A stretch of DNA of 30,191 nucleotides, taken from UHGV virus genome UHGV-0176705. One strand, 5' to 3'. The notes beneath the pieces are model-generated. The model searched no databases. It saw only the letters and a program-made list of their open reading frames with translations, and was not told where the DNA came from. Origin of the DNA: a virus. The translations under genes were made by a program, and so were the position numbers. This document shows positions 16,224 to 17,146 of the stretch, piece after piece. Position 1 is the stretch's first letter, and each line of letters starts with the position of its first letter.

Positions 16224-17146
16224 GTAGCAAAATTCTCGGTAACGTCTGGGATGCATGTGCCGCGTATGGAGTCAAAGGTGCAAAGCTGATGATCATGGCG
16301 CGTCTGGCTGATTATTCGAATGATGACGGGGTGTGTTATCCCGGTGTTGAAACAATATGCCGACAGCTTGGGTTGGGAGAAAGCACAGTAAGAACAGCAA
16401 TTTCAGAGCTGGAGGCTGATGGCTGGCTGACGCGTCAGTCACGCCGCAAAGGTAATCGTAATACGTCCAATCTTTATCATCTGAATGCTGATCGGCTTGA
16501 ACAGCTTGCCAGAACGGAGCGGGATAAGGTCGCAGAACTAAAACAGCAGCGCAGACTTTCAGTACTACGTGACCCGTCAAAATCTGAACCTTCAAAATCT
16601 GAACCGTCAGAATCTGAATGTTCAGGTGTGTTTGACCCTTCAGATTCTGGCAAAAAAACGGTTTTGACCCTTCAGAATCTGGACCCAGATCCACAAGGTT
16701 TAAAACATGATCCGCAAGTAAATTCAAAACATGATCCGCAAGATATTGGCGCATCCGCTGACGCGTCTGCACCAGCGCGCTCTGCCCGACAGGAATATTC
16801 ACCGGAATTTGAACAGGCCTGGCAGGAATATCCCAAACGTGCTGGTGGTAATTCCAAGTCGGCAGCCTTCAAAGCCTGGAAAGCCCGTCTCAGGGAGGGA
16901 ATAAAACCGGAGACCATGCTTGATGGTGTGAGACGTTATGCCGCCTGGGTACGTGCTACAGGAAATACCGGCACACAGTTCGTGAAGCAGGCTGCGACGT
17001 TCTTTGGACCCGATCGTCACTTCGAAGACTTCTGGCAACAGCCAGCCGCTCCCGGAGGTGGGCGACAGCGACAGGTCGATGTCCTGGCTGGCCTGGGAGC
17101 CATGTCTGACAAATTCGGTAAATCCAGTGACAAATTGACATTCTGA
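16220..17146 (+). CDS. Putative replication initiator / HTH replication protein (lambda O analogue by position)
   Basis: GTG start with GGAGG upstream; N-terminal winged-helix-like region; central repetitive PSKSEPSKSEPSESE linker encoded by iteron-like DNA repeats; followed by DnaC-like and DnaB-like genes. Confidence 0.5.
   Translation: MSSKILGNVWDACAAYGVKGAKLMIMARLADYSNDDGVCYPGVETICRQLGLGESTVRTAISELEADGWLTRQSRRKGNRNTSNLYHLNADRLEQLARTERDKVAELKQQRRLSVLRDPSKSEPSKSEPSESECSGVFDPSDSGKKTVLTLQNLDPDPQGLKHDPQVNSKHDPQDIGASADASAPARSARQEYSPEFEQAWQEYPKRAGGNSKSAAFKAWKARLREGIKPETMLDGVRRYAAWVRATGNTGTQFVKQAATFFGPDRHFEDFWQQPAAPGGGRQRQVDVLAGLGAMSDKFGKSSDKLTF
16577..16743. repeat. Iteron-like direct and inverted repeats inside the initiator gene (putative phage origin)
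   Basis: TCAAAATCTGAACC at 16577-16590 and 16592-16605, TCAGAATCTGAATG at 16607-16620, TTGACCCTTCAGA(T/A)TCTGG at 16632-16650 and 16664-16682, and AAAACATGATCCGCAAG at 16702-16718 and 16727-16743. Confidence 0.5.

Follow-up and report, generated by a model that had tools for sequence, protein, structure and literature searches.

A repeat array within the initiator gene of a phiP27-type lambdoid prophage as its probable replication origin

The stretch of viral DNA analysed here, UHGV virus genome UHGV-0176705 (30,191 nucleotides (nt), hereafter the window), is a lambdoid prophage of the phiP27 type. Its replication initiator gene, a homologue of phiP27 L17, occupies positions 16220 to 17146, and two systems of short repeats lie inside the gene between 16568 and 16743. 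We present evidence that these repeats are maintained as DNA and are inherited together with the DNA-binding half of the initiator, and we consider it probable that they form the replication origin of the prophage, organised as in lambda and bound by the product of the gene in which they lie. The gene and the repeats within it are as follows.

16220..17146, plus strand: replication initiator gene, 308 amino acids (aa), phiP27 L17 homologue (open reading frame (ORF), Pfam, PHROG and DNA identity).
16568..16619, plus strand: iterons 1-3, a tandem array of 15-nt period encoding DPSKSEPSKSEPSESE.
16577-16587 and 16592-16602, plus strand: cores of iterons 1 and 2, TCAAAATCTGA.
16607-16617, plus strand: core of iteron 3, TCAGAATCTGA.
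16631..16650, plus strand: iteron 4, TTTGACCCTTCAGATTCTGG, with core TCAGATTCTGG at 16640-16650; encodes FDPSDSG in the frame of iterons 1-3.
16651..16662, plus strand: A-tract spacer CAAAAAAACGGT, with A7 at 16652-16658, separating iterons 4 and 5.
16663..16682, plus strand: iteron 5, TTTGACCCTTCAGAATCTGG, with core TCAGAATCTGG at 16672-16682; read as LTLQNL in another frame.
16688..16743, plus strand: GATC-headed repeats, GATCCACAAG at 16688 (degenerate) and GATCCGCAAG at 16709 and 16733; candidate unwinding or Dam-sensitive element.

The first system consists of five direct copies of a single family of about 20 nt, with 70-100% identity to the reference copy of the repeat finder. The units start at 16568, 16583, 16598, 16631 and 16663, giving spacings of 15, 15, 33 and 32 nt, and each contains a core of consensus YCARAWTCTGR (starts at 16577, 16592, 16607, 16640 and 16672). 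The core is palindromic, TCAGA-N-TCTGA or TCAGA-N-TCTGG, and forms an 11-bp dyad, the minus strand matching at the same positions. Tandem Repeats Finder reported a 15-nt array of 3.3 copies and a 24-nt array of 2.5 copies. An earlier sequence-only reading had listed three copies of TCA(A/G)AATCTGAA(C/T), two of TTGACCCTTCAGA(T/A)TCTGG and two of AAAACATGATCCGCAAG, all within a repetitive coding segment. These were recovered at 16577, 16592 and 16607, at 16632 and 16664, and at 16702 and 16726, respectively, and the translation does contain DPSKSEPSKSEPSESE. That reading had also taken the two longer copies to contain the inverse of the core. In this it was wrong, misled by a core, TCAGA-N-TCTGA, that is itself palindromic; both are further direct copies of the same unit, and the repeat finder placed them in the one five-copy direct family. 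When CCKTCARAWTCTG was searched with at most one mismatch, 8 matches were found in the window against 0.30 expected, a number reached in 0 of 100 shuffles, and all five exact matches fell inside 16574-16681 (108 nt). A motif scan with shuffles detected no other cluster of the iteron motif elsewhere in the window. A chance origin of the repeats is thus excluded. The second system starts 5 nt past the first. Its three sites, of consensus GATCCRCAAG, belong to a GATC-headed 24-nt unit that is A/T-rich in its remaining half (TAAATTCAAAACAT). Within the gene, duplex stability over 50 nt is lowest at 16698-16747, which corresponds to these GATC repeats.

The repeats are constrained as DNA and not as protein. 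Iteron 5 has nearly the same nucleotide sequence as iteron 4, yet it is translated in a different frame (LTLQNL against FDPSDSG): the 32 nt between their starts are not divisible by three, and translation is back in the first frame ahead of the GATC repeats. The out-of-frame iteron is kept, as LTLQNL or FTRQNL, in homologues from Klebsiella, Salmonella, Citrobacter and Enterobacter with 72-80% identity. The exchange of Leu for Arg in this copy sits at the codon that holds the degenerate K (G/T) base of the iteron and, judging from the protein alignment, would be CTT against CGT in the DNA. Codons and motifs were counted in 80 distinct homologous genes, comprising that of the window, those of phage loci and those of loci obtained by a one-genome-per-species scan. 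The first serine of the SxSx motifs in the linker was encoded by TCA in 297 of 340 cases, compared with 16% elsewhere in the same genes, and the second by TCT in 264 of 340, compared with 10%; AGC or AGT accounted for 8 of these 680 serines against 47% elsewhere. Aspartate before proline was encoded by GAC 94 times and by GAT 0 times inside the iteron array, and by GAT 152 times and GAC 33 times in the 110 nt past it, where GAT creates a GATC site. The density of GATC was 22.2 per kb in the 110 nt past the last iteron, family-wide, against 2.7 per kb in the rest of the gene. The amino acids of the repeats vary (SKS, SKF, SKP, SNS, SES) and the nucleotide core is kept. On the gene strand, the linkers, 21.7 kb in sum, contained 276 instances of the exact core YCARAWTCTGR and the other 274 kb of the fetched sequences contained none; a scan of both strands also placed it in the linker only. 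Across the family the core always lies 297-452 nt past the start codon, and in most loci the start-to-start distances are multiples of 15 nt.

A second line of evidence comes from the mosaic structure of the gene. Its modules, and the two replication genes that follow it, are as follows.

16220..16567, plus strand: predicted N-terminal winged-helix DNA-binding domain and long helix, aa 1-116 (AlphaFold2 model).
16744..16746, no strand: mosaic joint at which the C-terminal module meets the N-terminal/origin module (megablast); the shared sequence ATTGGCGCATCC begins here.
16745..17146, plus strand: C-terminal domain, aa 176-308, the DNA of which is shared with phages of unrelated N-terminal halves.
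17157..18035, plus strand: DnaC-like helicase-loader gene (mechanical ORF from 17148; probable start ATG 17157).
18032..19423, plus strand: DnaB-family replicative helicase gene (Pfam DnaB_C, E 1.5e-73).

Megablast matches to other phages begin at gene nt 525, window position 16744, which puts the joint 1-3 nt past the last GATC repeat. From there to the end of the gene (nt 525-927, 16744-17146) the DNA is 94-96% identical to that of Stx1a- and Stx2a-converting phages, PhiR49_2 and ASU11, and four more records match over nt 525-845 (16744-17064) at 90-92%. The phages sharing this C-terminal half have N-terminal halves unrelated to that of the window, and they carry repeats of their own at the same mid-gene position. 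In the Stx1_14040 type these are GGGAAANCC, with four exact copies and 17 matches against 4.2 expected, together with a 12-nt CAGAGAATAC array; in the PhiR49_2/Lys8385 type they are a 21-24-nt array of the TCACCAGGTGGT type and GAACCAGTCA. Zero copies of the phiP27-type core were found in loci with other N-terminal modules. SfII gp41, LLS gp44 and the homologue of Klebsiella phage Kp4873-4 have N-terminal domains 60-63% identical to that of the window, and the helix ESTVRTAI and the basic segment RRxGNRNxSN are invariant across them. In common with the window these three have the TCARAATCTG core with its 15-nt period, an A-rich spacer, GATCC repeats and a final iteron, which in SfII and Kp4873-4 stands behind a similar GGCAAAAAAG spacer. 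In C-termini and downstream genes all three differ from the window. Exchanged C-terminal halves accompanied by other repeats, and a shared N-terminal domain accompanied by the same repeats, indicate that the N-terminal domain and the repeats form one specificity module. The C-terminal domain, loader and helicase behave as a second module, which is the classical lambdoid pattern (PMC8022706).

When the C-termini were sorted into classes, single linkage over-merged them, and stricter clustering gave three real classes plus a false-positive pair (L091/L095). The DNA directly past the GATC repeats, 16750-16790, has 73% GC and contains short palindromes (GACGCGTC, GCGCGC). It is the start of the shared C-terminal module (IGASADASAPARSA) and is common to phages with other N-terminal and repeat modules. 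This GC stretch is reminiscent of ori-lambda, in which a palindrome follows the A/T-rich region.

Natural variants showed which parts of the array are fixed. The N-terminal half was found in 57 of 5,426 complete E. coli genomes, and homologous initiator genes carry the repeats in dozens of Enterobacterales species; the sequence-only reading had named their absence from such genes as evidence against an origin. Among nine aligned variants the tandem 15-nt array had 2, 3, 4 or 6 units; the core of iteron 4 was invariant, and the cores of iterons 4 and 5 together were invariant or nearly so. The homologues measure 298, 303, 308, 313, 318, 323 or 328 aa, in steps of 5 aa, and such copy-number polymorphism in 15-nt units is as expected of an iteron array. 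Homologues from Symbiopectobacterium, Providencia and Proteus (L019, L020, L022, L024, L027, L028 and L030) have the helix STIR(G/S/N)A and not STVRTA. For the most part TCAGAATCTGA gives way in them to CCAGAATCTGG, a core that encodes PPESG and is a perfect palindrome of 11 bp, and some have a 33-nt repeat. Where Thr59 of the helix is replaced by N, S or G the cores are mostly of the CCAGA type, and where it is present they are mostly TCAGA, a hint that helix residue 59 may covary with the first base of the iteron; there are exceptions (helix GESTVRTAIK), and the genes are phylogenetically non-independent.

At the DNA level the gene is 97.2% identical to NC_003356 10334-11260 (Enterobacteria phage phiP27 L17), and the protein is 97.7% identical to phiP27 L17. 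The gene begins with GTG, which overlaps the stop codon of the ORF before it (GTGA). Residues 23-70 match the Pfam winged helix HTH_36 (E 9e-12; 45 bits against a cut-off of 25) and residues 2-307 match phrog_270, 'replication initiation protein' (E 1e-79). By these matches the protein is an HTH_36 phage initiator of the phiP27 L17 / SfII gp41 type (phrog_270). The N-terminal part also matches phrog_391, 'replication initiation O-like' (E 6e-32), a resemblance to lambda O that is one of annotation and clustering only. Public databases label the protein 'helix-turn-helix domain-containing protein', 'GntR family transcriptional regulator' or 'Transcriptional regulators', and a single UniRef name reads 'Phage replication protein'; the annotation falls short of its function in replication.

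An AlphaFold2 model, built on an alignment of 24 homologues and of low overall confidence (mean predicted local distance difference test score (pLDDT) 54), gave residues 1-116 as four helices, a beta hairpin and a helix at 90-116, with block-mean pLDDT mostly 63-83 and dips at residues 1-6 and 34-38. Residues 118-190 had no structure (pLDDT below 40) and a small helical domain followed at about 195-250. The repeats encode residues 117-175 approximately, that is, the predicted disordered linker between the winged-helix and C-terminal domains, and a disordered segment can tolerate a sequence dictated by the DNA. Searches for relatives of solved structure by sequence found none that was close, only weak winged-helix matches (FadR, E 0.03), and Foldseek returned MarR/ArsR-type winged-helix proteins only, as generic fold matches; neither kind of match was informative on the C-terminal domain. 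The latter matched no family in Pfam or NCBIfam, and its PHROG matches are to 'DnaD-like helicase loader' and 'primosomal protein' families. Presumably it recruits the helicase loader and the helicase.

Both of these partners are encoded next to the initiator. The DnaC-like gene matches Pfam IstB_IS21 (E 6e-15), phrog_50 'DnaC-like helicase loader' (E 4e-89) and NCBIfam DnaC (E 7e-38, under the curated cut-off), and the DnaB-family gene matches NCBIfam TIGR00665 (E 4e-93, under the curated cut-off). The three genes stand in an early-right operon with cI/cro-like genes upstream and a Q antiterminator gene downstream. A promoter and terminator scan of 13400-19600 gave nothing above shuffled expectation, and nothing at the repeats on the plus strand. 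Upstream of the replication genes in the same operon, Rfam identified the isrK Hfq-binding small RNA (15206-15282, plus strand, 55 bits) and a C4 antisense RNA (15307-15394, plus strand, 84 bits), both within the 5' part of an ORF at 15149-15811 (Pfam Ash plus Rha); the locus resembles a P1/P7-type c4-antirepressor immunity cassette. Just past the Q gene lies a 365-aa ORF (20253-21350, minus strand) that looks by eye like an OmpC/NmpC-type porin and, further downstream, a tRNA-Arg (anticodon tct, 23419-23495, plus strand). The two are typical lambdoid late-region cargo.

The proposal of the sequence-only reading, a prophage origin inside the initiator gene, is therefore supported by the identity of the gene, the placement of the repeats in the linker, the constraint on the DNA and the mosaic co-inheritance. 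Initiation might proceed as follows. The winged-helix domain of the initiator would bind the five iterons and build a nucleoprotein complex like the O-some of lambda; the A7 spacer, possibly an intrinsic bend, may add curvature and aid the complex. The complex would then destabilise the adjacent 24-nt repeats at 16688-16743, which are GATC-headed and moderately A/T-rich, and the C-terminal domain would recruit the phage-encoded DnaC-like loader and DnaB-like helicase, whose genes follow directly on that of the initiator. For the second repeat system a comparison can be drawn with oriC, whose 13-mers are headed by GATC, and with the GATC repeats of P1 oriR. We suggest tentatively that opening would occur at the GATC-headed repeats and that these may be sensitive to Dam and SeqA.

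Several observations weigh against an origin at this place. The adjacent AT-rich unwinding element, which the sequence-only reading had proposed to look for, is present only weakly: 16698-16747 is a local stability minimum, at the 87th percentile of the window for instability and with a GC content of 27-40% per 30 nt. The 15-nt spacing and the 11-bp dyad are unlike lambda's iterons, and half-sites about 6 bp apart raise a question of geometry for a winged-helix dimer. A Pfam scan with E up to 0.01 matched HTH_36, GntR, PaaX and other helix-turn-helix families only, and lambda O (Phage_rep_O) was not among the matches. Two homologues of 287 aa, P0094 and P0097, have iterons 4 and 5 and the GATC repeats only and lack iterons 1-3, so that either they are defective or the tandem array is dispensable; the deletion apparently lies between the first unit and iteron 4. 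In one subgroup GAACC replaces two GATCC sites, which are therefore not essential. Lastly, our literature search, which had the original phiP27 genome paper outside its scope, found no description of the origin of a phiP27-type initiator and no experiment tying the repeats to replication or to initiator binding.

The explanation that survives best beside an origin is that the repeats are sites at which the initiator, or its winged-helix domain as a repressor, acts in autoregulation, copy control, handcuffing or phage exclusion, unwinding and helicase loading taking place elsewhere in the prophage. Known iteron systems combine both roles, regulation and origin, in one set of iterons, so this explanation largely overlaps with the one we prefer. 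The DNA constraint and the co-inheritance tie the importance of the sites to the DNA-binding domain and do not tell their role, the A/T-rich element beside them is weak and the databases call the protein a GntR-type regulator. We nevertheless regard a purely regulatory role as unlikely, given the strong matches to phage initiator families, the location of the gene directly upstream of those for the helicase loader and helicase, and a window with no second cluster of the motif. The mid-gene linker position and the modular joint also fit lambda, P22 and phage L (PMC8022706).

It is very improbable that the repeats are merely slippage-prone, low-complexity coding sequence for a flexible Ser/Pro/acidic linker and have no function as DNA. 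The segment does encode a predicted disordered linker, the number of units shifts by 15 nt (5 codons) and keeps the frame, as slippage of a coding repeat would, and duplication by descent within a single gene can make codons look more fixed than they are. However, a nearly identical 19-nt sequence is translated in two frames, the Leu/Arg alternation tracks the degenerate base of the DNA motif, and the nucleotide core is kept under varying amino acids. The Ser and Asp codons, moreover, are nearly fixed in 80 genes from many genera, in sharp contrast to the rest of the same genes, and unrelated N-terminal modules have unrelated repeats at the same place. A coding-only explanation is thus strongly disfavoured. 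Least probable of all, if only slightly, is recognition of the repeats by another factor (a host protein, or Dam/SeqA at GATC) or a role chiefly as the recombination hotspot that made the joint: the joint does lie 1-3 nt past the last repeat and GATC is about eightfold enriched just past the last iteron family-wide, but the joint is past the repeats and not within them, no DnaA box (TTWTNCACA, at most one mismatch) was found in 16140-17290, the window-wide count being at chance, GATC sites are lost in one subgroup, and repeats that differ wholly between N-terminal modules argue for recognition by the module's own protein and not by a common host factor.

If the segment is the origin, a probable origin and a replication function can be given to a gene labelled 'helix-turn-helix domain-containing protein' or 'GntR family regulator' and carried by prophages of E. 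coli, Shigella, Klebsiella, Salmonella and relatives, phiP27-like Stx-converting ones among them. Together, the invariant helix and the iteron core would provide a simple sequence signature for replication-specificity groups, and the work would yield a defined origin fragment and a target for blocking the replication of Stx phages. In this locus, moreover, nature provides a clear case in which the sequence of a disordered protein linker is dictated by a DNA element. That an origin can lie inside the initiator gene is a textbook principle; the present case belongs to an initiator family for which no origin had been described and is marked by the out-of-frame iteron and the family-wide architecture. 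A more far-reaching proposal, which we make tentatively and hold to be possible but not quite probable, is that the linker amino acids are largely a by-product of the origin DNA, that the 24-nt GATC repeats, which are conserved across Enterobacterales, are a Dam/SeqA-sensitive unwinding element, and that HTH_36 initiators have a distinct origin architecture. Were this true, the order would be a 15-nt-period array, an A-tract, one or more terminal iterons and then GATC repeats, and it would predict origins and replication-specificity groups in prophages with a gene annotated 'helix-turn-helix protein'.

The organisation can be compared first with that of lambda. Lambda iterons are about 19 bp long and about two helical turns apart, the A/T-rich element of lambda is much more A/T-rich than 16698-16747, and lambda P captures the DnaB of the host. 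In the window, by contrast, an 11-bp dyad core recurs every 15 nt and then every 32-33 nt, the A/T-rich element is weak, one iteron is out of frame, the initiator belongs to Pfam HTH_36 and not to the lambda O family, and the partners are phage-encoded DnaC-like and DnaB-like proteins. Common to ori/O of lambda and to the locus described here are direct repeats with an internal dyad, placed mid-gene in the linker that joins the DNA-binding N-terminal domain to the recruiting C-terminal one, and a more A/T-rich stretch on the downstream side. Lambda and P22 are known, and phage L is predicted, to have their origin iterons midway along the initiator gene (PMC8022706; PMC7466680). In lambda, including the lambda-like Stx phages with six iterons, the N-terminal domain and the origin are exchanged together and the number of iterons varies, as it does here (PMC7466680; PMC8022706).

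P22 and phage L, with their gene 18, are also lambdoid, and have like the window a repeat array inside the initiator gene and a phage-encoded DnaB-type helicase. P22 is not known to have a DnaC-like loader between initiator and helicase. The repeat sequences differ from those of the window, being of about 20 bp in P22 and TGTCCAACGGA in L, and the initiator showed no close similarity to gp18, a direct comparison of the two not having been made. The repeats of phage L gene 18, six imprecise copies of 11 bp, were predicted from sequence only (PMC8022706). In an Stx phage named 'P27' the O/P region is lambda-like and includes six lambda-type iterons; the O protein and the origin of this phage were studied biochemically (PMC7466680). 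This is a clash of names: the deposited phiP27 genome (NC_003356) has an HTH_36 initiator, DnaC-like and DnaB-like module as in the window. Since the O/P region of that 'P27' is unlike L17-L19 of NC_003356, the results obtained with it are not transferable.

The iteron origins of plasmids (P1 oriR, pSC101, R6K, RK2) likewise combine direct repeats, a plasmid-encoded winged-helix initiator and an adjoining unwinding element, and in P1 oriR short repeats containing GATC stand next to the iterons. As a rule, the iterons of plasmids measure 17-22 bp, recur about every 22 bp and are located outside the rep gene, commonly together with DnaA boxes. The array described here differs in lying inside coding sequence, in its spacing of 15, 15, 33 and 32 nt and in having no DnaA box.

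SfII gp41 (annotated 'O protein family'), LLS gp44 and the initiator of Klebsiella phage Kp4873-4 belong to the same initiator and origin family as the gene of the window; no origin is annotated for them or discussed in the literature checked. They differ from the window in that no DnaC-like or DnaB-like genes follow downstream. Their last iteron is in frame (HPSESGG), and the phiP27 group has an extra iteron, which is out of frame.

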